64,000 bases of DNA from a virus. Position 1 is the first letter of the stretch, and each line of letters starts with the position of its first letter. The stretch lies in the IMG/VR virus record IMGVR_UViG_3300030333_004027, positions 4,087 through 68,086 of that record, one strand, 5' to 3'. Below the pieces are notes generated by a model. That model was given only the letters and a program-made list of their open reading frames with translations, made no database searches and was not told where the DNA came from. Positions 986-34,616 of the stretch are shown here, piece after piece. Both the position numbers and the translations under genes were made by a program.

Positions 986-2494
986 ATGGCAGGGGGGCGT
1001 GAACACAAAGGCCGCGTCAAAATGCGAGGCGGCCAAGACCTGATAACAAAGTATGCTAATGCGGAAGCATTTGAGAGTGAGAGTGCGTTTGCTCGATTTT
1101 TGAACAAGATTGAGCCAACACGGTCGGTGAATGGATGGCGTAGCGCGATAAAGCGTTGGAAATCCGGTGGTGGACAAATAATTTACACCAAATGGAACGG
1201 ACACAAGTATTCTAAGGATAAACCAAAGGATATTGCTGTTCCTCACGCGATTAAAGCACCTACTAACTATAAAAAGTATTATGATGAGGCACGCGATGTC
1301 TATTTGACTTTCATTGAGCAAGCCAATCAAATTATAGAGATTGACGGTGACACGCATAGGGAAATGAAGAAAAGGTATTCTGACGAAGGTGGTAGGTTTA
1401 CAGTAGCGCAGATGGCGCAGCACTTTGGTTTCCCTATCTTGTGGATGCAAGATTACATCAGGGTAAATCATTGGAAGCACCCAATGTCACCATATACTGA
1501 CGAACAAATGATTGAAATGAGCGAGGATGAGTTGGTAGTTGATTTCCTTGAGATGAAAAGGACTGCTGCTTTGGAAACGGCAAAAAGAGCGCACTACGCC
1601 GCTATGTCTAAGGACGCTAACAGATGGCGCAACCTAGATGATACATTCTATAATGAGTTTATGAAGGCAATTGGCAACAAGCATTTGCCACCTAAAAGCG
1701 TTAAGAAGATAAAGATGAAAGATGCGGGTCCGTATGCTTTGGTTATATCTCCTACTGACCTACACTTTGGGTCATCGTGTTGGATTGACGAAACGGGTAA
1801 TCATTACGATACAAAGGAAGCACGCAAAAGACTTATGGATAGAACGCAGAATCTAATCTCTCGTATGCCTAGCCGACCTGAAAAGATATACTTGGCTACC
1901 GGTAGTGATTGGTTCCATGTCGATAACGATACGGGTGGCACGACAAAAGGCACACCACAGGATATGTCCGTGAGTCCGTCTGAAATGTTTATGGATGGTT
2001 GTATGCTTGCACAGGAGCATATTGAAATGCTTAGGACTGTTTGCCCTGTTGAAGTAGTGTTTGCGCGTGGTAATCACGATAGGCATCTTGCTATTGCTTT
2101 GATGATGTATCTCAAGGCATCTTACGATAAAATAGACGATGTTAACGTGACTGTTGACCCGAATATAAGGCAGTATGTTTCTTATGGTAATACTCTATTA
2201 GGGTTTACTCACGGCGATGGGGTCAAGGGTATGGATTTGCCTTCTCTTATGGCTAAGGAAGAGTGGAAACAATGGGGTAATTGCGAACACAAGATATGGT
2301 TCCACGGTCATCTTCATCATCAATCTGTAATAGAAAAGGGTGGTGCTATGGTAGTGCAGTTGCCTAGTTTGGCCGGTGCTGATAGATGGCATCACCGTAA
2401 GGGTTATATTCTAAGTAGGCCGGGTTTGTCTGCACACTTGATAGACAAGGATTTGGGTCTGATAGGAAACCTGTTTGCTCCGGTGGTGGAATGA
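986..2494 (+). CDS. Calcineurin-like metallophosphoesterase with a long helical N-terminal region
   Basis: Complete motif set DLHFG, GSDWFH, GNHD, THGD, GHLHH. Stop overlaps the terminase start (ATGA). Confidence 0.85.
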   Translation: MAGGREHKGRVKMRGGQDLITKYANAEAFESESAFARFLNKIEPTRSVNGWRSAIKRWKSGGGQIIYTKWNGHKYSKDKPKDIAVPHAIKAPTNYKKYYDEARDVYLTFIEQANQIIEIDGDTHREMKKRYSDEGGRFTVAQMAQHFGFPILWMQDYIRVNHWKHPMSPYTDEQMIEMSEDELVVDFLEMKRTAALETAKRAHYAAMSKDANRWRNLDDTFYNEFMKAIGNKHLPPKSVKKIKMKDAGPYALVISPTDLHFGSSCWIDETGNHYDTKEARKRLMDRTQNLISRMPSRPEKIYLATGSDWFHVDNDTGGTTKGTPQDMSVSPSEMFMDGCMLAQEHIEMLRTVCPVEVVFARGNHDRHLAIALMMYLKASYDKIDDVNVTVDPNIRQYVSYGNTLLGFTHGDGVKGMDLPSLMAKEEWKQWGNCEHKIWFHGHLHHQSVIEKGGAMVVQLPSLAGADRWHHRKGYILSRPGLSAHLIDKDLGLIGNLFAPVVE

Positions 2495-3993
2495 GTAATT
2501 TTGGTATAGACTTCTCGATGGAACGCTCTAGGAAAGATGTCTCCTACTTTTACAAATGGTTGGGGTATACTTGGGGCGACCATATTGGCGAATGGATGGA
2601 TATGTATGGCGAGAGGGGTGACGCACAGGTTCATCGAGTTTGTGTGATTGCACCGAGGGACCATAGTAAGTCCACTACTTTAAGGATAAAACTATTGCAT
2701 AGTGCGTTGTTTGAAAGATGGCGCAACAAGCCGTTTACCTGTTGGTTGTTCTCAGCAAGCAAGGATTTGGCCGTTAGAAGACTTGAAGAAATTAGAGAGG
2801 ATATGAAGAGGCATCCGCAGTTGTCTAAGTATCTCCATAAAAAGAGGGGCAATAAGTTGGAGTTGCATTTTACTAACGGGGCATGGATAAGGGCTACTTC
2901 TGTTGGGGCTGCAATTCGTGGTGAGCATCCGGCTTGTATTGCTTTCGATGACGTTATTGACGATAGCGGTGATATGGATTGGACTAAGATAAGACAATGG
3001 TTCAGGAAAAAGATTACTCCGATGTTGAGTCCCGGCACTTCTATATATTGCGTAGGCACGCCTATGAGTATGGTTGACTTGTATCACACGGAAATGATAA
3101 ACAATGATACGTGGAAAACGGGTATATGGTCTGCCTTGCCTAATTGGGAAGAGTATAGGGCTGACCCTGATAACGTCACACCGATAGAGTTGTGGCCTGA
3201 GTTTAGACCACTTGCGTTTCTTTTAGAGCAAAAGCAAGCGATGGGTGAGTTGTCTTTCATACAGGAGTATCTATGTAAGGTGATTGACGATGAGGCTTCT
3301 GTGTATCCACGTAATCTGACTCGTAAGAATATGAACCTAGATACTGTTTTTGACAAGGGCAAGATGGAAGGATATAAATACGCAATAGGGTTTGACCCTG
3401 CACACGGCTTGGGACAGGACTACTCGGTAATGGTGGTTCTGAAACAGGATTCTGATGGATATATACACTTGGCTGATATGTGGCGTAGGAATGACTTTCC
3501 CCCTGCGAAGCAAGCAGATGTAATGATAGAGTGGAGCAAGAAGTATGGCACGCCGGCATTTGCTGTTGAGGCCGTAGGTTTCCAACAGATGTTTGAGAGT
3601 TTGATTAGTCAGAAGGGCGCAGTAGTGGATTATCGTGAAAGCAAGGTTAGCAACAAGACTTTGAAGCAGGGATTGTTAAATAGAATGAGAGTATGGTTTG
3701 AGAGGGAGTTAGTATGCTTCCCCTATGGTGATGACTTTACTCGTAAACAAGTTAATATACTATTAGAAGAGTTGGAGAGTCATGCGTGGCGCGAGGGTGA
3801 AATCATGGACTTAGGCCGACACAACGACTGTGCTATGGCTATGGCGCACGCACTAGACCAATTCTCTTATAAATCGCCCGATATGCCCGTAGTAATGGGA
3901 ACCATGAGAAAGAGTGAGTGGACAGGGGGAGTTAGTAGTGGAATACAACGCCGAGACACAGGCGGTCTTGGCGGCAAAGTAGTGAGAAGGTGA
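2491..3993 (+). CDS. terL: Terminase large subunit
   Basis: Walker A APRDHSKST, 'IRGEHP', Walker B IAFDDVID, coupling motif VGTP, RNase H-like nuclease GFDPA...DYSV and C-terminal HNDCAMAMA. Confidence 0.95.
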   Translation: MSNFGIDFSMERSRKDVSYFYKWLGYTWGDHIGEWMDMYGERGDAQVHRVCVIAPRDHSKSTTLRIKLLHSALFERWRNKPFTCWLFSASKDLAVRRLEEIREDMKRHPQLSKYLHKKRGNKLELHFTNGAWIRATSVGAAIRGEHPACIAFDDVIDDSGDMDWTKIRQWFRKKITPMLSPGTSIYCVGTPMSMVDLYHTEMINNDTWKTGIWSALPNWEEYRADPDNVTPIELWPEFRPLAFLLEQKQAMGELSFIQEYLCKVIDDEASVYPRNLTRKNMNLDTVFDKGKMEGYKYAIGFDPAHGLGQDYSVMVVLKQDSDGYIHLADMWRRNDFPPAKQADVMIEWSKKYGTPAFAVEAVGFQQMFESLISQKGAVVDYRESKVSNKTLKQGLLNRMRVWFERELVCFPYGDDFTRKQVNILLEELESHAWREGEIMDLGRHNDCAMAMAHALDQFSYKSPDMPVVMGTMRKSEWTGGVSSGIQRRDTGGLGGKVVRR

Positions 3994-3997
3994 GTGA

Positions 3998-4489
3998 ATG
4001 GCAGGTATAAAACCAAAGAATGATGCAACAAAGAAGAGAAGTAAGGTGACGGGTAAGAAGTTTAATCGACAAGACCCTAATGGGCGTAGGCACGGTCCTA
4101 TGTCTAGGCGAAAGGTATATGGTTTAGCGATAGAGAAGGTTCTGTGTAGTCATTGGGCTAAAAACCCGTTGACAAGCAGCGAGATTGCATATCACGCAAA
4201 CGAGCATATTAGCAACCATTGGACACAGTTGAATGGCTATAGCGTGGGTGCTATTCTCCGTAAGTATGAGAAACAGGGTCTTGTGGTTGGCGGCAAGAAG
4301 TATGAGAACGGACAGGGCATAAAGACTTGGACTAGAAATTGGGACATCCCATTGGAAAACGACTATGAGTATCACGGCGGCAATTGGAAAGGCAACCCGC
4401 GAGTATGGTTCAAGGATAATAGTGGCAAGTGGAGAGGCATAACGGCCACCGATGAAAATTTGAAAAAAATTTCTGAAAAAAAATTATAA
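3998..4489 (+). CDS. Putative winged-helix DNA-binding protein
   Basis: Basic N-terminus; PLTSSEIA...LNGYSVGAILRKYEKQGLV...KTW pattern; GGTGA SD. Confidence 0.55.
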   Translation: MAGIKPKNDATKKRSKVTGKKFNRQDPNGRRHGPMSRRKVYGLAIEKVLCSHWAKNPLTSSEIAYHANEHISNHWTQLNGYSVGAILRKYEKQGLVVGGKKYENGQGIKTWTRNWDIPLENDYEYHGGNWKGNPRVWFKDNSGKWRGITATDENLKKISEKKL

Positions 4490-4570
4490 AAATCGATTGA
4501 GGTGGTTAGCGGTGTTGCCGGCGCACATAGATACTTTTTGGCGGATTACAAATCCAAATTGAGGGGCGGC

Positions 4571-4864
4571 TCATGCGGAACCACCCCCCAAGTTATCATC
4601 GACTGTGATTACTTCATCTAGCAACTCACGGTTGTCCTCGGTGAAGTTTTCAATGTCATACATGGACACCTTCTCCACTTCATACATAACATCGAAGTGT
4701 GCGTCCTCATCCAATGGTTCTCGCTGCTCGCATCGGTCAGTTTGCAATACTGCCCATGCCTCAGCCACTTCACGGTCTGTGAACACCTCAGTCCATGCCC
4801 TGACGTATAGGCCGTCATACATGGCTACTGTGGCCTTGTATATGGTGTGGGGGTGGCCGGTCAT
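4571..4864 (-). CDS. Hypothetical acidic early protein
   Basis: 97-aa ORF with G-rich SD and protein-like composition. Confidence 0.6.
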   Translation of the reverse strand: MTGHPHTIYKATVAMYDGLYVRAWTEVFTDREVAEAWAVLQTDRCEQREPLDEDAHFDVMYEVEKVSMYDIENFTEDNRELLDEVITVDDNLGGGSA

Positions 4865-5449
4865 ATTACCACCCCCTGTTGCTGGCGCAGGCAGGGCAGG
4901 CCCCTATGCATGAGTCCTCGCATGGGGTGTCGTTCGTTCTTGTTGCTTCTTGGGTCGCTTGTGTGCTTGCCATACCCCCCCGTCTTCATGCTTGCTCTTA
5001 TACTTATGGGTGGTCCTATACACATAGTCTATATACTAGGTTCAATATCAGCCCATACAGGGCGCACCCCTGCCAGCCCCTATTTTTTCCATTTTTGAGC
5101 GATTTTTGAGTTGAGCGGACACGGAATCTCTATATACTAGGTTTCTCAACCGGACAGGGGGCCGGCGGCCCCTATTTTGCGCCACATGGTAAACAACGGA
5201 TAGTCAAGACTATAAGCCCCCATCTCATGGATGAGGTGGTGCGGGGGGGCCGAGGGGGGCGGCCCACAAGGTATATATACCGACAGCCCCTCTCATCATG
5301 GGCGCGGGTTTTCGCAACCCTATATATACCTTACGGTGAGAGAGAGAGAGAGGGAGAGAAAGACTATATACTACCGTGGGTAGGACACCATCGGGGGCCG
5401 GCGGCCCCCAATGGCTTACGTCTATCTGACTAGAGAGAGAGAATTAATC

Positions 5450-5944
5450 TCAATCCCAAAGAATGGTTTCGCCCTTCTCATTCTTGTATCCGATGTATTT
5501 TCCCTCATCGCCCAAAACTCTTGAATCATCGAAGTGCAATTTGAAGGAAACATGAGGTTCCATGTGGCTCCAATGACTGACCTCGATTTCATACCGAACG
5601 TTGCTCATAAATCGGTCCCTATCTTTCTTCAATTCCTCGACCTTGCTTTCTAGGGTCTTGAGGATGCCATTCAGGTGATTCCTACCTAGAGGTAGTCTCA
5701 GGGTTGGTGCAAATATCTGATAGCACTCAGTAGGTAGTTCAACCACTAGTCTAGGCCACTCAGCATTTTTCATGGCTGCTCGGAAGTTTGCTACTGTGTT
5801 GAATCTGCTCTTAGGGTAGGCATCGTCCCCACCATCTCTTTGCATTATCAAGGCGCTCATCTTAGCGTTCTCAATGGCGTTCAGGTTGCGGTTGTCGGTA
5901 TAGGCTTCGCCGCCGACCTCGGCTTCTGATGTGTGTGTCATCAT
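5450..5944 (-). CDS. Hypothetical early protein
   Basis: 164-aa ORF; TTTATA about 30 nt upstream (leaderless-type spacing). Confidence 0.7.
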   Translation of the reverse strand: MMTHTSEAEVGGEAYTDNRNLNAIENAKMSALIMQRDGGDDAYPKSRFNTVANFRAAMKNAEWPRLVVELPTECYQIFAPTLRLPLGRNHLNGILKTLESKVEELKKDRDRFMSNVRYEIEVSHWSHMEPHVSFKLHFDDSRVLGDEGKYIGYKNEKGETILWD

Positions 5945-6215
5945 GTTCCCGCCGTGTTAGTATAAGGGTATAAAGGCTCGCCTAGATGCTCATCTCTTGC
6001 ATCATACAATAAATAACAACCATTATAAGCCTACATCTCTAGGTGTATCGGCCGCCGAGCGAGGCGAAGCCGAGCGAGGGTATCACTTCGGAAAGACTAT
6101 ATACTGCCTGCCTTATGGATAAACGGGTGCGGTGCGGTGCTGTGCATTATAGGCTCCCCCCTTTGAGAGAGAGAGAGAGAAAGAGAGAGAGATAACTATA
6201 TATACCCCCACCCAC

Positions 6216-6443
6216 TCACGGCCAAGTGGACTCATCAATAAGTTTATATACCCCCTCTAGTCCGATTTCATCGACCACATAGGATTGCTCGACAATCAAT
6301 TCCAAAACTGCATTAAGTGCAGTTTCTACACCGAATTGCACTTGGTCGGTGTAAATTGCACAGTTAGTGCGGATTTTCTCTTCAATGTCTCGGATGTCAG
6401 TTGTTGTTATTGGGGCTGCTCTCATATTATACCCTAGCAGCAT
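6216..6443 (-). CDS. Hypothetical protein
   Basis: 75-aa ORF followed by a (CT)n tract; start uncertain. Confidence 0.5.
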   Translation of the reverse strand: MLLGYNMRAAPITTTDIRDIEEKIRTNCAIYTDQVQFGVETALNAVLELIVEQSYVVDEIGLEGVYKLIDESTWP

Positions 6444-6606
6444 CTCGCTTATAGTCTTTGTGGTTAAGGGTAAAATTCGGAAGGTTTATAGGGTGTCTGC
6501 CTGATGGATAAACAGGCCGGACCGTGCGCCCCCCCCCGAAGGGGTAATTTGAGAGAGAGAGAGAAGTCATATACTTTTCACAATCCTTATCGCAAGGTTT
6601 ATAGGC

Positions 6607-6861
6607 TTACCACTTATGCGGGTGCGCCAATAGCAATAGGGCGGGGATTTTCAATTTCAATTTCTCCACTTCTTCTCGGTGTTCGACTATTGCGGGTGGT
6701 AGCGTGCATCCGTGGTCCGGCATTCTATTAGGGTGGTTAACTCCCCAATGTAGGCTCTCTTCACACATCTCAAACCCCATTATGAAGGCATTTCTCTCTC
6801 CATCGGTCATTCCGTCTGTTGGGCATCTCTTGTTCTTCTTTTCGTCAGTCATTTCATTCAC
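6607..6861 (-). CDS. Hypothetical protein
   Basis: 84-aa ORF, co-oriented with neighbours and followed by a (CT)n tract. Confidence 0.5.
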   Translation of the reverse strand: MNEMTDEKKNKRCPTDGMTDGERNAFIMGFEMCEESLHWGVNHPNRMPDHGCTLPPAIVEHREEVEKLKLKIPALLLLAHPHKW

Positions 6862-7042
6862 ATCATGTAGGGCTATACCCTACGGGGCTAACACACGCAC
6901 CTTCCCTTATTAACCTGCCGGTCATCCATAACGCTTATATATGATGGGATGACTTTTTATTTTCGGCCTTCTCTATATTTTGCTAATCATAAGGTTTATA
7001 GGCTGTCAGCCCTATGTATGAGCGGGCCGGACCCCATTTTTA

Positions 7043-7355
7043 GGGGTATATAACCTTTTCGATATGCTTATATATGGTTTTTATGGGTATATAACCTTTT
7101 CGCAACACTTATAACCTTTTTTTAAGCATATATAACCTTTTCGGTCATTTTTAGGGGGTTATAAGTCTTTCGCAAGGGTTATAAGGGGTTTTTTCAAGTA
7201 TATTAACCTTTTCGCAAGGATTATATACTATAACTAACTTGCTTATAGTCTTTTCGCAAGGCTTATATACTCTTTTTTTTAGGTTATAAGTCTTTCGATA
7301 AGTATATATAGGGGGTTTTTAGGGGTATATAACCTTTGCGAAAGGTTTATAGGGT
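7043..7355. repeat. Degenerate array of 8 quasi-palindromic TATA-BRE/BRE-TATA units, period about 41-42 bp
   Basis: Units approximate TATATAACCTTTTCGCAAGGnTTATA. Central CG at 7060, 7101, 7142, 7171, 7213, 7255, 7296 and 7339. Non-coding. Confidence 0.85.
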
Positions 7356-7451
7356 ATTTATTTTTTTGCGCGTGGCAAAGTATATATACTAGGTTTCGCA
7401 TCGCTAAGGCGCGGCGGACGCTTGCGAACATCAATAGCCAAAGTTAATATA

Positions 7452-7820
7452 CTAGTTTTCCCAATGCCACACCGCCGAGCCATCGCGGGCCATGTAATCG
7501 AATAACTCAGATTTCGCGCGAGCCATTGAGGGAAACGGATTTGATATTCTATCCCAAACAACCCGAAACGGTGAAACCGGACGGCTCAAAACCACCCACT
7601 CGGCGCGCTTGCGGTAATTCACATTAACGGCTTGAATCCTGATTTCGGCCCCTTCTAGCCGTGTTCGATAATCGCCGGCTTCATGCTTCTCAAATTCGAT
7701 ATGGTCGAATTTTCCGAGGTGGTCTTTAAACTCGCTCGGCTTATGGCCGTTGGCCCTTGCATATGCTAGGGCGATTCGGTTCAATCTTCGGGTGTGTTGG
7801 TCCGACTCCATCACCACCAC
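7452..7820 (-). CDS. Hypothetical early protein
   Basis: 122-aa ORF overlapping the upstream ORF; start may be ATG 7811. Confidence 0.6.
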   Translation of the reverse strand: MVVMESDQHTRRLNRIALAYARANGHKPSEFKDHLGKFDHIEFEKHEAGDYRTRLEGAEIRIQAVNVNYRKRAEWVVLSRPVSPFRVVWDRISNPFPSMARAKSELFDYMARDGSAVWHWEN

Positions 7821-8041
7821 CCCGCATTGATGGCGACAATTTCGCCACTATCATCAATGAACCCCTCGATAAATTCAAGGGCTAAGGCGAAGGACACGAA
7901 ATTTGAAGTCCACGTGTTGCCGAGGGTATCGGCCCATAGAAGGTGGACTCTTTGGTTTACCTCATAGGCGGGGGGGTTCGTTCTTAGTTGGTGTATTTTT
8001 TGCACCGCTTCTTCATTGTTGGCTCGCGTGTATCTGACCAT
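7811..8041 (-). CDS. Hypothetical early protein
   Basis: ATG 8041 lies 28 nt after TTATATAC (8069), so the start is revised from GTG 8053. Confidence 0.6.
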   Translation of the reverse strand: MVRYTRANNEEAVQKIHQLRTNPPAYEVNQRVHLLWADTLGNTWTSNFVSFALALEFIEGFIDDSGEIVAINAGWW

Positions 8042-8437
8042 GATACTACACACGCAACCAAGTATATAACACTTGCGAATTTTCCCCCTAATAATAACCT
8101 TTATAGGCTGACCGCCCTTCTCACTATGGGCTAAGGATACGCGGACGCTTGCGAAAAGAAAAGACTATAAACCGTCAGCCCTTGCCGGTGCAGTTTACTT
8201 TTTGCACTAAGTGTCGTAAGATATATAAGGCCCGCATGAGATTTCAAGAGATAAAGATTTCTGAAATGAAAACCGTTATACTGCGAGCAAGTCCGATTAA
8301 ATTGGCGTTTAGGCCGGCCCTAGAGGGTCAAATAGGCATTTTACGAAAAACGCTTGACTGCGGCGGTGTAGTTTTTACACCAACTATATGAACCTTTCGG
8401 TCAAGGAAAAGTTGTGCGGAGAATATAAAGTTATCGT

Positions 8438-8574
8438 CACTAAGTGTTGAGAATAACACCGAGTGTGATTAATGCACCAAGTGTTTTAACCTCATTTAGT
8501 GCAAAGGTAAAACCTGATTTCATTATGTGACTTAATAACAAAATGCACATTAAGTGTATTTTTTACACTAAGTA
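8438..8574. repeat. Array of 9-bp CAY-N3-GTG boxes in AT-rich non-coding DNA
   Basis: Copies at 8438, 8457, 8475, 8493, 8521, 8548 and 8566 (last ends GTA); one isolated copy at 8205. Confidence 0.7.
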
Positions 8575-8734
8575 TCCTACATTCCCATAGGTGCATAAAA
8601 AGCACCGATTCGCGCCGGCCGGAACATTAGTCACGAATGTTGACCCCTTATATACTTTGGGGGTTCATGTTTTGGTCATGCGTCAGAATGCCCGAACGAT
8701 AAGTATATATGCCTCACTCGCTAAGACCCAATTA

Positions 8735-9406
8735 ATGAAGATAACTGAGAACAACGCGAAAACCGGCATTGACTTTGAAAAGTGGGGGGATAAATGCGAC
8801 CCCGCAAAAACCGAACCGCATTATCTAGGGCGCGTTTTGTGTTTGGGTGGATACGACCACACATTCAAAAAACACGGCCGCCCGCCCGTATGGAAAATGG
8901 AAACCATCGAGGAATTAATGCTCGCGGTTTCACAACCATATTACCCACCCGCCGAAGAAGCGAAAAAGCGCGGATGTGCTGAGGCATTATGTTTTGATGC
9001 ACCTTCAAAAAGCCCATTCAAAAACGGGATAACCGACCGCGACCGCGCCCGCCGGAAACTTCAACACCGACTCAAGCAACAGGCCGCCGAGATGGAGCGA
9101 GAAGCCTTAGTTATCAAAAATAAGGGGTTCAAGCCGTGCCGTTATAAAGCGTGTAAAGGTCGCGCTCATGGTGCTTACGGTGAAAAATGCCCGATTGCAT
9201 CGGGAAGGGGCAAAACCGGCGGGAAAAATGGAACCGGTGCGAGCAAGGCCCGAAAAGGTGCGAAGAATGGCCGTTCAAAGGGTGGCCCAAAAAAGCGGAC
9301 ACAAACCGCCGCCCGACTCAAGGCCGGAGAAATCAAAATCAAGACCAACGAAATTCAAACCGTTGACCCATTCGCTTATTATCAGCATAAAATAAACAAG
9401 AGGTGA
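8735..9406 (+). CDS. Very basic hypothetical protein with a Cys/His cluster and a NUMOD3-like K/G-rich tail
   Basis: ATG 8735 follows CGATAAGTATATAT (BRE-TATA). Contains CRYKAC...H...C and KGAKNGRSKGG. Confidence 0.65.
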   Translation: MKITENNAKTGIDFEKWGDKCDPAKTEPHYLGRVLCLGGYDHTFKKHGRPPVWKMETIEELMLAVSQPYYPPAEEAKKRGCAEALCFDAPSKSPFKNGITDRDRARRKLQHRLKQQAAEMEREALVIKNKGFKPCRYKACKGRAHGAYGEKCPIASGRGKTGGKNGTGASKARKGAKNGRSKGGPKKRTQTAARLKAGEIKIKTNEIQTVDPFAYYQHKINKR

Positions 9407-9410
9407 AAAA

Positions 9411-11000
9411 ATGAAAAAAATTGTAAAATGGACCATAGAAAACGAAGGAACGCAAGAAGTAAATAACGCATGGGAAGCCGTGCGACAAGTCGAAGAGCGA
9501 ATGATGGATGAAAAATTTATCAATGAATTGCTAGAATTTATTGATGATTACGACTTTGAAAAAATAATGTCTCCCTTAAGAGGTGTTTGAATGAGTGAAG
9601 TTGCTTTAATCATAAAAGAAATGCAAGAAGCCCGCGCCGATTGGCAAAGAATACTTGATAGGCGAAACGCCGAAGTCGCAAAGATGAATTTGACGCTTGC
9701 GAACAACGAAAGAAAGAAGTTATATACTAGTAAGATAACCCGAATACAGAACCAAAACAGGAGATGAAAAACAATGACAAGAATACAACATATGAGAACC
9801 AACGCCGGAAACCAAGCAAAAAACCAATTTGAGGTTTATGATGATGCGGGAAAGCATTTTCTATCATATAACTCAAAGATTGCGACCATTAAAGGAGATA
9901 CAGTTTTACTCTATGAACCATATTGGAATATGTTTTCACAGACTACAAACGGATATTTGCTCAAATTCCTTAACGAAGATAGCATTCAAGATATTCGCGC
10001 AAAGGTCAAGAGCGGAGACTATAAGGTGATTCAATGAGCGATTTCCATTTGAAATTTTACCAATGTCACGGATGCAACGGATTTGATAGATACGAAGAAA
10101 TCAAGATATGGGATTCAAAAAATCGGGGTTTTTGCACTAGAGAATGTCAAGAGGTGGTAGCATGAAAAAGACAATTCGCCGATGGTCGCCACACTTTGAA
10201 GAGTGGGAATATACGACTTTTTCTAACCTAAAAGAATATTGCGGGTGGTTGTTAGACGAATTGAACGCCCATACTAATTTTGATGAGAGATATGAAGAGG
10301 TGATTCAATGAGCGAAACTAAAACATGGGAGCGTGAAGAATTTATTTGGTTCCTAGAAAATACACTTATTCCCGACCTAAAAGAAAGTGGCCGACACGCC
10401 ACCGCCGAAGATTTTGAAACGGCGGTTTTCTTTATGAAGGGTGAAACCGTGTATGATAAGGTTTTATGCTCCCACGTTTTGGAGTATCCCGATGTTAGAA
10501 TTTTTGAGAGGTCGGAAGAATGACCCGCGAAAAAACCATAAATTCTCTAATGAGACTTGAAGCATCAGATTGGATTAAGGTCGCAACGACCGCGCTTGAG
10601 ATGGTGAACGAAAGACACAGAAAATATGAGGACTTGAAAGAAGCACTTGTCGGAGATAGTGACAATTTCACACATGACGAATTGATTGAAAAAATTCATC
10701 ATCTAGTGGATTTTGAAAGTCTAATAATAAATATGAGGTCGAAAGCATGAAGGCGAGAGTGACGATAGATGAATGGGATAAGAGTGGCCCATGTGTTACG
10801 GTCTATTACGAAGGATGCGAGTATGTTGGTTGCTTGAGCCTTTACAAAGATGCAAATGGAGAGGTGATTGAATGAGAGATGTTCGACAAGATATTGATTG
10901 GGCCATGAATTTTACATGGCAAGAGTTAGAAGAGTTTCTTTTGACTCAAAACAAAAATGATTTAGCGCACACACTCACAAATATTTTTAGGGGGTGCTAA
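9411..11000 (+). other. Operon of nine translationally coupled micro-ORFs
   Basis: ORFs 9411-9590, 9591-9767, 9774-10037, 10034-10165, 10162-10311, 10308-10523, 10520-10750, 10747-10875 and 10872-11000. Most have (G)AGGTG SD sites and ATGA overlaps; six are below the ORF-track length cutoff. Confidence 0.75.
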
Positions 11001-11256: not shown

Positions 11257-11291
11257 GACGCTTGCGAACAGGTAATAGAAGTATTAATATA
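11257..11291 (+). promoter_or_regulatory. GACGCTTGCG box plus TATA promoter
   Basis: Box at 11257, TTAATATA at 11284, ATG at 11313. Confidence 0.75.
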
Positions 11292-11312
11292 CTTGTAAAA
11301 GAACCCAACCTT

Positions 11313-12338
11313 ATGAGCAGTAATACAAATGGTTCAGTAGGCTTAACAACGGGATTGATTAGTGCGTTCAACCGCATTGGTCAAGAAGCAAAGGGCGAAA
11401 CAGGGCAAGAAATCCTAGAAAATGCAGGTATGGATTTCACGGTCGTAAAGTCACCCCTCTTTGATAGTAATGGAAACGCGATTAAGAATTGCGGATATTC
11501 AAGACTTTCAAGAGATGACACCGGCCAAACTCTAGGAGTCGTATCAAACAAGTATCAGGTTTATCAAAATCAGCAAATGATGGATTTGTTTGAAACAGTA
11601 TGCCAAAGCACCGGTGCAAAAATCGACCGCATCGGTATGGTAAACGGTGGACAGAAGGTTTTCATGTCATTTAGACAGCCCGAAGGATTTTCATTCGGCA
11701 ACGGTGAAGAAATTGACGCATATTGGTATATGATGAGTAGCCATGACGCTTCAAGCGGACTCAAACTTTTCCCTTCGCCGGTTAGATTGGCCTGTTCCAA
11801 TCAATTCGGGATGCTTAACTCATTCCTACAACGCAACGGAATTGACCCAAAGACTCTAACCATCAGGCATTCAAACCTCATGGATGTTAGAGTGGACCAA
11901 ATGCTTGACAATCTAAACATTATCAACCACCTAACCGAGAATTTCGTTAAAGAGGCATCGGGACTTATCAACATTGAAATGAATCAGGATGAGCGAATTT
12001 CCTACTACATAGATGTTCTAGGACTCAATCAGAATCCTGACATCATGGACCCAAAGAGCAAGGACTACGATGCAACGAATCCTTACGGACTCGGAACAAG
12101 AGCGAACAACACGATTGACGTTCTCATGGACCTAGAGCAGTCAGAAACTAACAACGTGGGCGACATGGCCGGCACAAGATGGGGCGCATTTAACGCCGTT
12201 ACCGAGTATATCGACCACCGATGGACTATGGACAAGGCCGGCAAGGAATTAGTCGCCAACGACAAGAGGGTTGAGTCGGCCGTTCTCGGTTCGGGCATGA
12301 GAATGAAGAACAGGGCATATGAGTTGCTAACGGTGTGA
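11313..12338 (+). CDS. DUF932 (LGT_TIGR03299) phage/plasmid-like protein
   Basis: AGMDFTV, LGVVSNKYQVYQN, SHDASS, SPVRLACSNQ, IRHS, GTRWGAFNAVTEYIDH and MKNRAYELL motifs. Start revised to the ATG 29 nt after TATA. Confidence 0.9.
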   Translation: MSSNTNGSVGLTTGLISAFNRIGQEAKGETGQEILENAGMDFTVVKSPLFDSNGNAIKNCGYSRLSRDDTGQTLGVVSNKYQVYQNQQMMDLFETVCQSTGAKIDRIGMVNGGQKVFMSFRQPEGFSFGNGEEIDAYWYMMSSHDASSGLKLFPSPVRLACSNQFGMLNSFLQRNGIDPKTLTIRHSNLMDVRVDQMLDNLNIINHLTENFVKEASGLINIEMNQDERISYYIDVLGLNQNPDIMDPKSKDYDATNPYGLGTRANNTIDVLMDLEQSETNNVGDMAGTRWGAFNAVTEYIDHRWTMDKAGKELVANDKRVESAVLGSGMRMKNRAYELLTV

Positions 12339-17355: not shown

Positions 17356-17676
17356 TTGGGTGCGGTTTCATTAGATGAATTACATGAAATGTTTGAGGAT
17401 TTAGAGGCACTTTTTGATAAATTTGAAATAAGTCCTAGATATACCGGACCTTTTGACACAATGAGTGAAAGAATCAAGCATTTCGGGTTGCATGACAGTA
17501 GTTATGAGGTAAAAATAAATCGCTTGCGAACGCTAATTGAAAACAGTTATAAGTATATGACTCTAAACACGTTTAAGCAGAAGGTTCCTAGAGAAACACT
17601 ATTGCATTTCAAGGAAACTATGGCTGATGTGACTGCGGTTGTAAGAAACAACAAGGTGGAAAGAGAAGATGGCTAA
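17356..17676 (+). CDS. Hypothetical protein
   Basis: 106-aa ORF; TTG start uncertain. Confidence 0.5.
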   Translation: MGAVSLDELHEMFEDLEALFDKFEISPRYTGPFDTMSERIKHFGLHDSSYEVKINRLRTLIENSYKYMTLNTFKQKVPRETLLHFKETMADVTAVVRNNKVEREDG

Positions 17677-22980: not shown

Positions 22981-23171
22981 TGTATATAATTAACACAATA
23001 ATACTTCTTCTTTGTTGGTGGTGGATTGGAAAGGTAATGGATTTATTCACAATACCTATGGCGCATGAAGTGGCATCGCAAGCAGACGGCGATGATACCT
23101 TTGTCAATTCCGCTATGTTCCTTTCAATAGGAACCGAATGACTTATAAACACAAGGGTTATCTTCTTAAGT

Positions 23172-24694: not shown

Positions 24695-25609
24695 ATGGTA
24701 GTATGGAGTGTTAGTCTTAGACCCAAGTTAGATGAGATTATAGGACAAGATGAAGCAAAGGGCTTTCTTACGGATTGCTTGTCAACAGGTGGTGACATTC
24801 CACATCTATTGTTTCATGGTCCCGCAGGCGTAGGTAAGACAAGCATGGCTTACGCTCTTTCTTCTGAAATGGAACAACCGTTGCATATATTCAATGCAAG
24901 TAGCAAGGACACAAGAGGGATAGAGTTTATCGAGCGTGATGTGACACCGATAGCAAGAAGCGGTGTGAATGCTATCATAGTGTTGGATGAAGCAGACCAA
25001 ATAACCAAGTCAGCACAGATGGCACTCAAAGGCGTGTTGGAAAACTGCTCTTGTATCTTTGTTCTAACGTCTAACAACCCAACCGGAATCATAGAGCCGT
25101 TGAAGTCACGTTGTATTTCATTCTCATTCAAACCTATTGGTGATGCAGATGCAAAGCAAGCACTTAATAACATTCTATCCATAGACCCTATGCACCTAAA
25201 GGTTCCTGAATTTATACTTGATAATATAATCGCAAGCCACAAAGGAGACTTGCGTGCTATGGTTAACGCACTACAAGCGTATGTTACTATAGCACAAAAT
25301 CAAGGTAATGCAGAAGCGTTAAAGTTTGTCGAAACCACATTGAACGACCATGTATTTGACACCGATAAGTTTTACAATTATCTTAACGACAAAGATTTTT
25401 CTAGCGCATACAAAACAATGTATGATTTTGGCCGACTTAGAATTGTGCTAAAACAAATTATGAGACATTCCATTGACAATGATGCTGACATGAGGGTTGT
25501 TTCTCATGTCGTCACGGCATTCCGAGACTTACAATTTGGTATGCCTGAAGATGTCGTAGTCGCCGGTTTCTGTAAGAATATGGTGCAGGCGACACCTTTA
25601 TATGCGTGA
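24695..25609 (+). CDS. rfcS: Replication factor C small subunit (clamp loader)
   Basis: W....RP, HLLFHGPAGVGKTS, NAS..TRGI, IVLDEAD, LKSRC and GDLRAMVNALQ motifs. Confidence 0.93.
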   Translation: MVVWSVSLRPKLDEIIGQDEAKGFLTDCLSTGGDIPHLLFHGPAGVGKTSMAYALSSEMEQPLHIFNASSKDTRGIEFIERDVTPIARSGVNAIIVLDEADQITKSAQMALKGVLENCSCIFVLTSNNPTGIIEPLKSRCISFSFKPIGDADAKQALNNILSIDPMHLKVPEFILDNIIASHKGDLRAMVNALQAYVTIAQNQGNAEALKFVETTLNDHVFDTDKFYNYLNDKDFSSAYKTMYDFGRLRIVLKQIMRHSIDNDADMRVVSHVVTAFRDLQFGMPEDVVVAGFCKNMVQATPLYA

Positions 25610-27783: not shown

Positions 27784-28564
27784 GTTAACAGACCTACTAA
27801 AGAAGGCGCAGCGAAAGACCGTTCATGGTCCTTTGGTTGAGTCTTGTATTCTAAGTCACAATGGCGAGCAAACTTTGGATATTGTATCCCTTGTTAAAGA
27901 CGGCGTTTCAAGTGTCGCAAAGTTTACGGTAAAAGTAAATGGCAACGCGCAAGAAATACCGATACCAAACATAACTGATTTGTTAGGTGTGTTAAAGTAT
28001 CACGGTCAGACAGTAATTTTAGACTATGACGATAATAATAGGCTAAAAGTAAAGTCAGGCAGTAAGACTACTACTATCACCGCAAGCCGTGATGCTATCG
28101 CTTATTCTTCTTCACCCGAAAGTATAGATGTATGGCATAGTCATTCTATCAAGATAGCACACAAGATAAATACAGAAACAATGTCATATGAGAGCGCAAA
28201 TGGAACGATAGCATCCTACTTTGTAATAGTAGCAGACTCCACGGATTTGTTTGAGGCTTTGCGTTGCGATGGTATGAACGGCAAGAAGACAGGAAAGTAT
28301 AAGTTTATCTTCGATGCTGATGGCTTCCATATAGAAACAGGCACGGAATTGAAAGGGCTGACTAGGGCTACAATCAATGAGTATGACGTTGGTAAACACA
28401 CAATGTGCTTTGAGGGCGGTCTTGAGGAATTGATGAAAGTAGTGATGGGAGAAGTTGAATTGGGTTTCCTACACTTTACTGAAAGAAAGGGGGCCGCAGG
28501 TGAATGGGGTCTTATCATCTCTATGGATGAAGATTTCGTATTCCAAACATCGGTGATAGCATGA
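27758..28564 (+). CDS. Divergent PCNA-like sliding clamp
   Basis: 268 aa with a two-domain beta-alpha-beta repeat pattern; directly before PolB and near RFC. Confidence 0.6.
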   Translation: MTLRIQKNELTDLLKKAQRKTVHGPLVESCILSHNGEQTLDIVSLVKDGVSSVAKFTVKVNGNAQEIPIPNITDLLGVLKYHGQTVILDYDDNNRLKVKSGSKTTTITASRDAIAYSSSPESIDVWHSHSIKIAHKINTETMSYESANGTIASYFVIVADSTDLFEALRCDGMNGKKTGKYKFIFDADGFHIETGTELKGLTRATINEYDVGKHTMCFEGGLEELMKVVMGEVELGFLHFTERKGAAGEWGLIISMDEDFVFQTSVIA

Positions 28565-30801
28565 TTGTCGATAGAGGAAGAGGAACCGCCGTTCACATTC
28601 GTTATCGTGATGACGAAGGCAACAGACAGATGTTGATAGAGAGGGACATCAATCCCTATTGCTTTGTGGAAACACAACACAAAGACCACTTCCCTGCTGC
28701 AAGAAAACAAGATGGTTTTGAGGGATTATACGGAGAGTCGTTAACTAAACTAACCGTGTATGACCCACAACAGATTCTTGAGATACAAGACATGGCTAAA
28801 TCAGCAGGTTATAAGACATGGGAAGCAAAGATACCATTCTTAAACCGCGTGCTTGTTGACCGCTTGAAGCGCAAGATGAGTCCTATACCTAACTACGACC
28901 ACAGGATATGGTATCTTGACTGTGAGTGGAACCCCGAAACCAAAGCGATGCGTGTGATGGTATTCCACGATAACTTCACAGGCAAGACCGAATGCCTTTA
29001 CGTTAATCCTAACTACGATGCTACCGAAGCAAGCAACAGAACGCCGGGTCGCCGTGATGCGAAAGGAAGGCTTGAGTTTCCCAACGAGGAATCAATGCTA
29101 CGCAATTTCTTAACCCGCATAGGTGAGGCAGACCCCGATGTAATTACAGGGTGGTTCGTAGTTGGTGCTGATATTAAAACGATAATAGAAAGATGCAACG
29201 CCAAAGGTATAACTGCCGGCTCTCTATCTCCTTACAATAGGATTCGCTATCAGTTTGGTGATTGGGCGCAACCAATTCCGGGCCGCAACTGTATAGATTT
29301 GATGGTCGGCTTCTCTAAATTATGGGAATTGAAGAACGGGAAACTTCCGGGCTACAAATTGGATGACGTTGCTGAGATAGCATTAGGGGAAAAGAAAGTA
29401 GCCCTACCGGATGGACACAACACTTACCACACGGACTTAGAATTATACTTAGATTATTCTATTCAAGATGTGGAATTGCTACCTAAATTAGATGCAAAAG
29501 TAAATGTGATAGGATATTACACCGGATTACAACACTTGGTTCAATGTGACATTAGGGCAACACCATACATTACTAGGATGTTTACCAATCTAGTCTTGTC
29601 TGATACTGAGTTTGAAAAGCGAATACCTACAGAAGCACAATTCGATAAGATAGATTATCAAGGTGCAGACGTAATGGCAGTCGAACCCGGAGTCCATGAG
29701 AAAGTAGGTATCTTAGATGTCAAGGCTATGTATCATAGCAACGCCGCATTACATAACATCAGTTGGGAAACGCTGAGTGAAGATGGTGAAGATTGTGGTA
29801 ATGGAGTTAAGTTTCATAAGGCTCACAAAGGACTACTTGTTCGACAGATGGATTTGATGACGAAACTTAGAAACCGATACAAGAATCTGATGGCGCAAGA
29901 CCCCGATAACAAAGCGAGGTGGGATGCTATGCAGTATGCGTGTAAATCTCTTGTTGCTTCTATGTATGGGGTATGTGGTGATGCTAAGTATGGAATGTAT
30001 CACCCGAAGGTTGCAGATGCAATCACATTTACTTCACGGCAGACACTAAAGAAGTTGCGTGACGAAGCATTTCAGGTCGGTTGGAAAACTATCTATGGAC
30101 ACACGGACAGTATTTTCGTGACCGGTGTTGATATGCGTAAATGGTCCGAAACACCCGATGCTCTTGAGAGACTAGAAACTATTAACACAAGAATGTATCC
30201 CATCGAAGTGCAGTTTGAAAGATACTGTGACCGTATGCTTCTCATGGCAAAGAACCGCTATGCGGGAAATGTGGTATGGACTGACGGAGAGTGGCATGAA
30301 CCTACTCTTTATGTCAAAGGGATAGAGATGAAGCAATCTCGTATGCCGCCTGTGATGAAAGAAGCGATGCGGGAAGTCATCGGTGGAATACTTGCCAATA
30401 AAGAGGAAAAACAAATACAAGAAAACATCAATAATTTAATTGTAAAAGTAATTAATGGTGAGTCGGAACCTATAAACCTTTGCATGAAAGGTAAACTGAC
30501 AAAGAACGTCAGCGCATATCGAACCCTATCCGGTCCTAGTGCGGGGGCGGCTTGGGCCAATGAATATCTCGGTAAGAGGTATAGAGGTGGCGACTTCTTC
30601 TTGACTACCATAGATAACAACGGTAAGTATATTGCTTTCGATGACCCACAGGAAATAGAGGGTAAGTATTCTATAGGATACAAGCACTTGGCTGAAAGGT
30701 TTATCGTAAAGAAAATAGAGCCATATTGGGAAATGATGGGTTGGTCTATGCGGCCACTTCTCAACGCGCTTAACGGCAAGGGGGGATTGACTTGGCTATA
30801 A
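28561..30801 (+). CDS. polB: Family B DNA polymerase
   Basis: Exo I YLDCEW, Exo II DVITGWF...DI, Exo III YSIQD; polymerase motifs LDVKAMY, KSLVASMYG, YGHTDSIF, KNRYAG and KGIE. Confidence 0.95.
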   Translation: MIVDRGRGTAVHIRYRDDEGNRQMLIERDINPYCFVETQHKDHFPAARKQDGFEGLYGESLTKLTVYDPQQILEIQDMAKSAGYKTWEAKIPFLNRVLVDRLKRKMSPIPNYDHRIWYLDCEWNPETKAMRVMVFHDNFTGKTECLYVNPNYDATEASNRTPGRRDAKGRLEFPNEESMLRNFLTRIGEADPDVITGWFVVGADIKTIIERCNAKGITAGSLSPYNRIRYQFGDWAQPIPGRNCIDLMVGFSKLWELKNGKLPGYKLDDVAEIALGEKKVALPDGHNTYHTDLELYLDYSIQDVELLPKLDAKVNVIGYYTGLQHLVQCDIRATPYITRMFTNLVLSDTEFEKRIPTEAQFDKIDYQGADVMAVEPGVHEKVGILDVKAMYHSNAALHNISWETLSEDGEDCGNGVKFHKAHKGLLVRQMDLMTKLRNRYKNLMAQDPDNKARWDAMQYACKSLVASMYGVCGDAKYGMYHPKVADAITFTSRQTLKKLRDEAFQVGWKTIYGHTDSIFVTGVDMRKWSETPDALERLETINTRMYPIEVQFERYCDRMLLMAKNRYAGNVVWTDGEWHEPTLYVKGIEMKQSRMPPVMKEAMREVIGGILANKEEKQIQENINNLIVKVINGESEPINLCMKGKLTKNVSAYRTLSGPSAGAAWANEYLGKRYRGGDFFLTTIDNNGKYIAFDDPQEIEGKYSIGYKHLAERFIVKKIEPYWEMMGWSMRPLLNALNGKGGLTWL

Positions 30802-33899: not shown

Positions 33900-34616
33900 A
33901 TGTTATTGATAGACGACAGGGAAAACCCCAAAGTTATCAACAAAATTCTCATGCGTATGGGAGATGCTTCACATGATAAGAAAGGAGAGGCAAGAGTCCT
34001 ACGCATGAAATCATCTGACTACCGCATGGGAACGTGGGGCATAGAAGCCAAAGAAATAAACGACTTGTATCGTTCAATCATGGGCTTTGGGAGAACAAGA
34101 ACAATAGTGGACCAACTGAGAGATTTGGAGAGAGAGTTTGAAACTCCAATGCTAGTTGTTTATGGGACAAAAATAAAACCGTATGTTCCGGGCAGACCAA
34201 CGGCTAGAACAATGGCGATTGAGATTGCTCGGACTAAGAAAGTAATACAACAATTCAAGATGAATTTCTATCAGCGTTTTCCTAAAATTAGATACATGGA
34301 ACTTGCTACTATGGATGAGTTTGTAAACTTTTTAGTGACAAACCACCATCAAATTAATGTTAAAAGTAAAATAGGCGTATCAAAATTGCCGTTGGATATA
34401 CAGAAAGATTTAATTAAGGCAAAACTAGACCCACGTATCAAAGTGTTGTCATCATTAGAGGGGATTACACCTAAGCACGCAGAAGATTTACTGCAAAAGT
34501 TTGGTAGTATTTCTAAGTTGCTATCAACCCGCACGACTCAGAAATCTATCATGGAGATTGAAGGTCTAGGGAGAGAGAAGGCTAAGAGAATCCTAAGCCT
34601 AAGAGATAACTATTGA
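33900..34616 (+). CDS. ERCC4/XPF-family structure-specific nuclease with HhH2
   Basis: LLIDDRE, SDY, IEAKEINDL..SI and tandem HhH (LEGIT.K.A..LL..FGS; IEGLG..KA..I). Confidence 0.9.
   Translation: MLLIDDRENPKVINKILMRMGDASHDKKGEARVLRMKSSDYRMGTWGIEAKEINDLYRSIMGFGRTRTIVDQLRDLEREFETPMLVVYGTKIKPYVPGRPTARTMAIEIARTKKVIQQFKMNFYQRFPKIRYMELATMDEFVNFLVTNHHQINVKSKIGVSKLPLDIQKDLIKAKLDPRIKVLSSLEGITPKHAEDLLQKFGSISKLLSTRTTQKSIMEIEGLGREKAKRILSLRDNY

Follow-up and report, generated by a model that had tools for sequence, protein, structure and literature searches.

A Tandem Array of Back-to-Back BRE/TATA-Like Modules with T-Runs on One Strand in a Marine Magrovirus-Like Genome

A 313-bp stretch without genes in the genome of a marine archaeal tailed virus is a real, conserved, fast-evolving, and unusual regulatory array composed of ordinary archaeal promoter and terminator elements. 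Its units are pairs of divergent promoter-like half-sites that resemble the virus's own promoters, vary in number among close relatives, and are accompanied by T-runs that lie on the plus strand. From these features, the array could well be a tandem bank of minimal bidirectional promoter/terminator modules that acts as a polar landing pad and insulator, a reading that we hold tentatively.

Genome setting and architecture of the array

The window, meaning the whole 64,000-base stretch that was analyzed, comprises bases 4087 to 68086 of a linear 68,086-bp virus record with a CheckV completeness of 100%. The genes that define its context are as follows.

986-2494, + strand: Mre11-like exonuclease gene
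2491-3993, + strand: large terminase (TerL) gene
11262-12338, + strand: DUF932 protein gene
24695-25609, + strand: RFC-like AAA+ ATPase gene
28561-30801, + strand: family-B DNA polymerase (PolB) gene
33900-34616, + strand: ERCC4/HhH nuclease gene

The virus also encodes a PD-(D/E)XK nuclease. No TBP or TFIIB genes were found in the viral genome, and any such factors binding its DNA would therefore be those of the host. PolB has hundreds of relatives in marine metagenomes, and its best full-length named relatives, at 22 to 23% identity, belong to haloarchaeal tailed viruses. Magroviruses are reported to have genomes of 65 to 100 kb, their own replication apparatus, and polymerases that cluster with those of haloviruses (PMC5434244). 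The virus studied here shares with them a marine metagenome source, and it is like them in its size of ~68 kb, its tailed-virus packaging gene, its own replication genes (PolB, RFC-like ATPase, and nucleases), and a PolB nearest to those of haloarchaeal tailed viruses (PMC5434244). We call it “magrovirus-like,” a term used as a description and not as a statement of membership.

Database comparisons of the region around the array gave little. Positions 6000 to 9500 of the window had no DNA similarity match in a phage collection, and an Rfam scan of 5800 to 8800 returned a single small RNA match at chance level (E 0.23). The neighboring small proteins had no Pfam or PHROG matches, the PHROG search among them covering P0001 and P0003. 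P0003 gave no Atlas lead (best score 0.79, chance level).

The array itself repeats a back-to-back BRE/TATA module, seven times in full and once as a half unit.

7043-7355 (313 bp): whole array
7047-7075: unit 1, left TATA 7047-7053, CG 7060-7061, right TATA 7068-7075
7088-7114: unit 2, left TATA 7088-7094, CG 7101-7102, right TATA-like box 7109-7114
7129-7143: unit 3, half unit, left TATA 7129-7135, CG 7142-7143, without a right half
7159-7184: unit 4, left TATA-like box 7159-7164, CG 7171-7172, right TATA-like box 7179-7184
7199-7227: unit 5, left TATA-like box 7199-7204, CG 7213-7214, right TATA 7221-7227
7242-7269: unit 6, left TATA-like box 7242-7248, CG 7255-7256, right TATA 7263-7269
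7284-7309: unit 7, left TATA-like box 7284-7289, CG 7296-7297, right TATA 7303-7309
7326-7351: unit 8, left TATA 7326-7332, CG 7339-7340, right TATA 7346-7351

A full unit is made up of two divergent half-sites, each reading CG-n-W-A-nnn-TTATA, with one central CpG in common. A preliminary description of this DNA had reported eight such units with center spacings of 41, 41, 29, 42, 42, 41, and 43 bp. The spacings agree exactly with those recomputed from the central CG dinucleotides (7060, 7101, 7142, 7171, 7213, 7255, 7296, and 7339); the third of the eight units, at 7142, is a half unit. A half unit with the same 29-bp spacing is also found in two relatives, L031 and L092. Tandem Repeats Finder reported periods of 41 (2.6 copies, 80% matches) and 42 (3.3 copies, 63% matches). 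The 15 TATA-like boxes start 19 to 23 bp apart, with one 30-bp step at the half unit. Being about two helical turns apart, they would face one side of the helix.

Several further points of the preliminary description were borne out. It had proposed over a dozen binding sites, and the array contains, over its two strands, 13 matches to the strict half-site CG-N-W-A-NNN-[TA]TATA. It had noted that no ORF is directly served, and indeed none begins within promoter range of the half-sites at either end. Linkers with T/G runs are present as described, with a single linker, 7228-7241 after unit 5, lacking a T-run. The concern that the array might be an assembly artifact can be dismissed, since an independent metagenome contig (L064) matches window positions 4001 to 8274 at 99.74% over 4,274 bp and carries all eight units. 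The units are also concentrated well beyond expectation: with up to 2 mismatches, TATAACCTTTTCG matches the 64-kb window 12 times, 9 of them in the array, against 2.08 expected, and none of 100 shuffles reached 12 matches. CGAAANNNTTATATA, with up to 1 mismatch, matches 9 times, 7 of them in the array (0.79 expected). A CRISPR array was considered and rejected; the units abut through T/G linkers of 12 to 15 bp, without unique spacers.

The half-sites resemble the virus's own promoters. At least 16 ORF starts are preceded, 19 to 25 nt upstream, by a TATA-like core, which on sequence is the archaeal leaderless layout. Single gene-proximal promoters with the same layout as the half-sites include 8696-8712, before the ATG at 8735, and, on the minus strand, 8063-8077, before the ATG at 8041. 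We trained a weight matrix on 16 gene-proximal promoters, none of them in the array, and scanned both strands of the 64,000-base window. Because the matrix was trained outside the array, this is a noncircular test of promoter likeness. Fifteen of the top 45 matches fell inside the 313-bp array, with unit 8 as the array's best (15.3 bits), and most of the other untrained top matches lay in the surrounding region from 5100 to 8700. The 15 TATA-like boxes correspond to the AT-rich TATA element of ~8 bp that characterizes archaeal promoters, and an upstream element like the factor-B recognition element lies at a fixed distance from them, matching the virus's own promoters. The earlier assignment of the half-sites as BRE/TATA-type elements is thus well supported at the sequence level, as judged against the virus's own promoters. 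The half-sites are probably bound by host TBP and TFB.

Base composition bears on a different proposal of the preliminary description, that the array might be a replication origin dependent on transcription factors. In an origin reading, the repeats would be AT-rich phased iterons, possibly activated by transcription. The GC content of the array is 0.316, versus 0.421 for the genome; the array ranks third lowest in GC genome-wide and is the second least stable 300 bp (-1.171, versus a mean of -1.319 and a standard deviation of 0.051). Phased repeats of 40 to 43 bp within such AT-rich, unstable DNA are what an iteron origin would look like, and the RFC-like and PolB genes belong to a rightward block downstream of the array. 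However, the least stable and lowest-GC 300 bp of the genome lie elsewhere, at 645-985, where the cumulative GC skew also has its minimum; across the array the skew stays level, although gene direction confounds this measure. A six-frame search of the genome gave no Pfam match to Cdc6_C (Cdc6/Orc1) or MCM, and many ORFs of the replication block match no family. Moreover, the array is missing from close relatives that share the replication genes, and its repeat motif is the general promoter motif. We therefore regard an origin at the array as quite unlikely, and 645-985 is the better candidate for a classical origin. This latter region, with a GC content of 0.267, is the intergenic region from which the leftward structural block and the rightward exonuclease/terminase block diverge, and it contains a 26-nt inverted repeat whose arms are 85% complementary and 72 nt apart.

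Conservation and distribution among relatives

Units were aligned across eight sources, the window and seven relatives, giving 35 units (28 distinct) anchored only on the TTT(T/G)CG center. Units are related by descent, and counts over them are therefore not independent. A second logo, from units selected with a regular expression, is circular at the positions that the expression requires, and the anchored logo was used instead. Invariant or nearly so, in 24 to 28 of the 28 distinct units, are TATA at -11 to -8, TTT at -3 to -1, C at 0, G at +1, A at +4, and TTATA at +8 to +12; positions -7 to -5 and +5 to +7 are nearly random. The BRE-like and TATA positions are selectively conserved.

The units of the window show an apparent palindrome, AACCTT/AAGGTT. 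Many relatives read AAGG on both sides, the left arm having gone from AACC to AAGG without a compensating change in the right arm, and the variable positions are complementary across the dyad in only 6 to 11 of the 28 units. This low complementarity indicates that the constraint is on two half-sites and not on a hairpin. A hairpin or palindromic operator was accordingly rejected, as the dyad symmetry is not kept in relatives.

The spacing of the units is also conserved. Among 24 distinct adjacent pairs of full units, the spacing was 40 bp in 1, 41 bp in 8, 42 bp in 7, and 43 bp in 8, so that the period noted in the window holds in related genomes at 40 to 43 bp. T-run length is inversely correlated with the length of the remaining linker (r = -0.83), and the variance was smaller than in every permutation; border substitutions alone would yield this correlation, which makes it weak evidence for a constraint on phasing.

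The array is confined to part of the virus's kin. The 38 viral loci related through TerL include 7 with a cluster of at least seven half-sites 2.1 to 2.9 kb downstream of that gene, and the start of an array is visible at the contig end of a further locus, L013. Among loci with at least 3 kb of sequence downstream of TerL, the array is present in 6 of the 8 with a TerL identity of at least 83% and in 0 of the 13 with an identity of 80% or less. Two close relatives, L004 and L005 (TerL identity, 89%), have no array, which implies that it is dispensable. The complete sister genomes G001 and G002, as well as L027, also lack it and have instead 33 to 50 copies of another motif, CTACAAAT, in the corresponding hypervariable region. 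An equivalent array, in the same position and with 4 to 8 units, is thus shared by one sub-lineage and is missing from the sister lineages. A search by way of the 223-amino-acid downstream protein retrieved no related loci.

Pattern searches extended this picture. The exact two-unit pattern of the window's own unit was found in no stretch of the viral contigs. A degenerate two-unit pattern was found in nine stretches of the viral contigs, seven from this lineage and two unrelated, and in 49 stretches of the metagenome contigs, 18 of which belong to this lineage and have matching flanks. Of the other metagenome stretches, 28 were chance or unrelated matches, and 3 (L067, L069, and L079) contained two back-to-back units. 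These unit pairs lie at ~2300-2460 in L069 (the same as in L079) and at ~2710-2760 in L067, in unrelated and very AT-rich contigs; hence, the back-to-back module is not unique to this virus lineage. Scanning genome contigs with a single unit gave at least 120 stretches. Among the 80 matches listed, most were chance matches in bacteria, about a dozen were archaeal, and none was from Poseidoniales, a result that is uninformative about the host.

Copy number differs among arrays. In a census in which 24 of 27 loci could be analyzed (L013, L055, and L094 dropped out), the 18 complete arrays had 4 to 8 units each, with 22 distinct sequences. With a TerL protein 100% identical to that of the window, one strain has 5 units instead of 8, indicating that copy number changes fast. 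Eight contigs (L003, L007, L008, L009, L010, L012, L013, and L017) end 2 to 4.4 kb downstream of TerL, L013 and L017 of them inside the array or a (GA)n tract. These ends near the array are likely assembly breaks caused by repeats and strain variation.

T-runs, flanking cassettes, and possible functions

A feature overlooked in the preliminary description is the strand bias of the T-runs in the linkers. All full units but one are followed on the plus strand by a run of 5 to 8 T, and the region 6985-7470 contains eight runs of at least 5 T, all on the plus strand, and no run of at least 5 A.

7078-7082, 7117-7123, 7148-7152, 7189-7194, 7273-7280, 7316-7320, and 7361-7367, + strand: seven oligo-T linkers, candidate oligo-T terminators or phased A-tracts

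The T-runs are conserved at unit positions +18 to +23 in the 28 distinct units. With seven runs of 5 to 8 T on the plus strand and none on the minus strand, they look like archaeal oligo-T terminators by sequence. Their centers are spaced by near-integer numbers of helical turns; the corresponding A-tracts are thus in phase and may curve the DNA.

Taken together with the half-sites, this polarity suggests how the array could work. Host TBP and TFB would bind at up to ~15 sites, whose TATA boxes, about two helical turns apart, would lie on one face of the DNA. Using the TATA-to-start distance of the genes, the predicted starts fall at center +36 for rightward and center -35 for leftward transcription. 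A rightward RNA polymerase would start 5 to 7 nt before the CG of the next unit and would reach the T-run of that unit after ~30 nt, so that rightward transcription would be short and futile. A leftward polymerase would start ~6 nt to the right of the CG of the previous unit, would meet no T-run, and would run on. This would make the array polar, with futile transcription to the right and free passage to the left. Placed in the hyperplastic early control region, with a rightward mini-unit on one side and a convergent leftward gene on the other, it could serve the host basal machinery as an insulator and a high-density landing pad. Unequal recombination between units would shift the copy number.

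Several observations count against this reading. In the units of the window, the predicted rightward start falls in a pyrimidine-rich stretch (CC at -6/-5), a poor initiator context that argues against efficient rightward initiation there; many relatives have purines at the predicted rightward start positions. In addition, none of the 16 gene-proximal promoters has a T-run between its TATA box and start site. The lack of the array in L004 and L005, the different motif of the sister lineages, and the constant company of the P0001 gene, both described below, also speak against it.

The same elements could instead form a DNA decoy written in the promoter grammar of the host, in which ~15 phased sites with built-in terminators would drain TBP and TFB, as well as RNA polymerase through futile 30-nt cycles, away from host promoters. 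After genome amplification, such a sponge would bring about host shut-off or an early-to-late switch. The array offers 13 to 15 strong promoter-like sites and no gene for them to serve, its candidate terminators are predicted to keep rightward transcription futile, its half-sites are under selective constraint, and neither TBP nor TFIIB was found among the viral genes. On the other hand, the copy number is low (4 to 8 units) and variable, and L004, L005, and all 13 evaluable distant relatives do without the array. A literature search for DNA decoys of archaeal TBP or TFB found no precedent. Titration of host factors, which the preliminary description had put forward, seems unlikely to us. Its further suggestion, a platform that loads RNA polymerase for transcription-driven entry of the genome, is a hypothetical role.

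The flanks of the array are conserved as well, and the gene to its right belongs to a lineage-specific family.

6988-7041, + strand: upstream mini transcription unit, with a promoter-like site at 6988-7003 (13.1 bits), GGCCGGAC at 7025-7032, and a T-run at 7037-7041
7374-7452, + strand: conserved right flank, with a promoter-like site at 7374-7389 (11.5 bits), GCTTGCGA at 7420-7427, and a second promoter-like site at ~7437-7452
7452-7811, - strand: P0001-family gene encoding a 119-amino-acid lineage-specific protein, its 3' end facing the array

In relatives, the array is always preceded by a cassette homologous to the upstream mini-unit, in most cases with a (GA)n tract at its end. The window has three copies of the mini-unit (6085-6200, 6480-6570, and 6988-7041), which share a plan of a promoter-like site, a GGCCGGAC-type motif near the predicted start, a variable GC-rich stretch, and a T-run. 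The motif is exact in two copies and degenerate in that at 6085-6200, and two of the three copies have a (GA)n tract. The predicted RNAs would be only ~20 to 45 nt long. A conserved RNA in the upstream cassette was judged improbable; the GC-rich part is too variable and is nearly missing in the window copy.

The presence of these cassettes raises the question of whether the array is adaptive at all. Unequal recombination among the promoter/terminator cassettes of the hyperplastic early region could have piled up empty ones as a by-product. Similar mini-units fill the region 5950-8720, the number of units differs between near-identical strains, the contigs of many relatives end in the array region, and L004 and L005 dispense with the array. 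Nevertheless, the functional positions are invariant while the spacers randomize, the unit length is held at 40 to 43 bp despite T-runs of 5 to 8 nt, and the same flanks are kept in 18 complete arrays from diverged strains. A nonadaptive origin is consequently very unlikely in our estimation.

On the right side, the two rightward promoter-like sites (7374-7476) aim into the 3' end of the leftward P0001 gene, and antisense or convergent transcription is possible there. GCTTGCGA has 10 copies in the window, versus 1.19 expected: on the plus strand at 7420, 8147, 9695, 11260, 12966, 14566, 17522, and 30896 and on the minus strand at 23076 and 25230. Of the eight plus-strand copies, at least seven, namely all but that at 17522, are followed roughly 10 to 20 nt downstream by a TATA-type promoter. 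The motif is retained in relatives and may mark, as an upstream site, a class of promoters or a regulon.

The P0001 gene is linked to the array throughout the lineage. All 12 array-bearing loci whose right flank extends for at least 764 bp have a homolog; none is present in the 11 whose right flank is 589 bp or shorter, or in any TerL locus that lacks an array. The family comprises 24 clusters, all from marine metagenomes, only one of which has a Pfam domain on record. The Atlas gave no lead (best score 0.83, chance level). The predicted structural model (mean pLDDT 70.9, pTM 0.61) has a core of four beta strands followed by a helix. A Pur-alpha-like fold was considered for it and rejected: the best Foldseek matches, to Pur-alpha repeats, had E values of 0.17 to 0.9 and were not reproduced by VIA-align, whose best Z score, 5.5, is within the noise range. 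Profile and structure comparisons identified neither a family nor a recognizable DNA-binding fold.

Sister lineages carry a different repeat in the corresponding region. In three loci whose TerL proteins are 78 to 80% identical, CTACAAAT fills a hypervariable region (42 copies at 12870-18700 in L038, 50 at 13030-20100 in L039, and 33 at 8040-12450 in L027), with at most one copy outside it. These copies form tandem arrays with a period of 14 to 26, together with 16-bp palindromes or half-palindromes 34 to 78 nt upstream of small ORFs. The window has only three scattered copies.

These observations lead to another alternative, in which the array serves a DNA-binding protein of the virus itself, such as one of the co-occurring P0001 family, as an operator or assembly array. 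Such a protein would load cooperatively at intervals of four helical turns, always on one DNA face, and would switch the convergent and divergent early promoters. The strict co-occurrence of P0001 with the array and the tight spacing of 40 to 43 bp are as expected for this arrangement, and the half-palindromic CTACAAAT motif, arrayed in the same region of sister lineages, is also placed upstream of small ORFs in the manner of an operator. That the sister lineages use a different motif fits a lineage-specific DNA-binding protein at least as well as it fits general factors. However, conservation in the array falls precisely on the general promoter elements, with free variation in between and without preservation of dyad symmetry; P0001 has no family or recognizable DNA-binding fold and only a moderate model, and its co-occurrence with the array is seen within one lineage only. 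We doubt that a viral protein is the main ligand of the array, and favor, as above, a bank of bidirectional promoter/terminator modules loaded by host factors.

Comparison with known systems

For the viruses of the abundant, uncultivated marine Euryarchaeota, metagenomes are the only source of knowledge, and we know of no information on how transcription is controlled in them. The locus described here offers a clear promoter grammar for such a virus, with leaderless genes and a TATA core 19 to 25 nt before the start codon, and the array is a selectively maintained element built purely of that grammar. If TBP and TFB bind it, the array would serve as a small natural system for studying how archaeal basal factors load, cooperatively or in competition, and would allow a direct test of host manipulation by decoy DNA instead of protein; a true sponge would be a DNA transcription factor sponge of a kind so far undescribed for archaeal viruses. 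If they do not bind it, the four-turn phasing and the co-occurring orphan gene would point to a new DNA-binding system.

Clustered strong promoters and mobile promoter/stem-loop cassettes are familiar from the early regions of tailed phages, including the T7 early promoters, the SPO1 host-takeover module, and T4-type cassettes. The array resembles these in that promoters are packed into a hypervariable region as repeated, recombination-prone cassettes. Early promoters of the T7, SPO1, and T4 types each serve genes and are codirectional, whereas the array is gene-less, bidirectional, phased at four helical turns, and composed of archaeal basal-factor elements. Plasmid iterons, the E. coli datA locus, and the family of repeats of EBV bind a dedicated initiator or maintenance protein. 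They share with the array phased tandem candidate protein-binding sites, the absence of a coding function, and a variable copy number. The array differs from them in that its conserved positions are general transcription factor sites and in that no initiator gene was found.

Term searches in the main texts of papers on related marine archaeal viruses, among them PMC5434244, found no mention of promoters or TATA elements, and those in the papers other than PMC5434244 found none of tandem arrays. For the back-to-back, phased, gene-less, and polar arrangement, we found no described counterpart.

The closest parallel for a single unit comes from Pyrococcus furiosus, in which transcription start site mapping by dRNA-seq and in vitro transcription demonstrated bidirectional transcription from symmetric promoter elements (PMC6640164). 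As in those promoters, the half-sites of the array have an AT-rich TATA element with a purine-rich element directly upstream, and the distance of ~23 nt from the TATA core to the start in P. furiosus is also that at the leaderless genes of this virus (PMC6640164). Both have symmetric elements, which permit divergent initiation in P. furiosus and would do so in the array (PMC6640164). The geometry differs: the P. furiosus case is BRE-TATA-BRE, with one shared TATA box, whereas an array unit has two TATA boxes flanking two abutting BRE-like elements (PMC6640164). Unlike the P. furiosus case, the module of the array is repeated eight times head to tail, is combined with terminator-like T-runs, and stands apart from any gene (PMC6640164).
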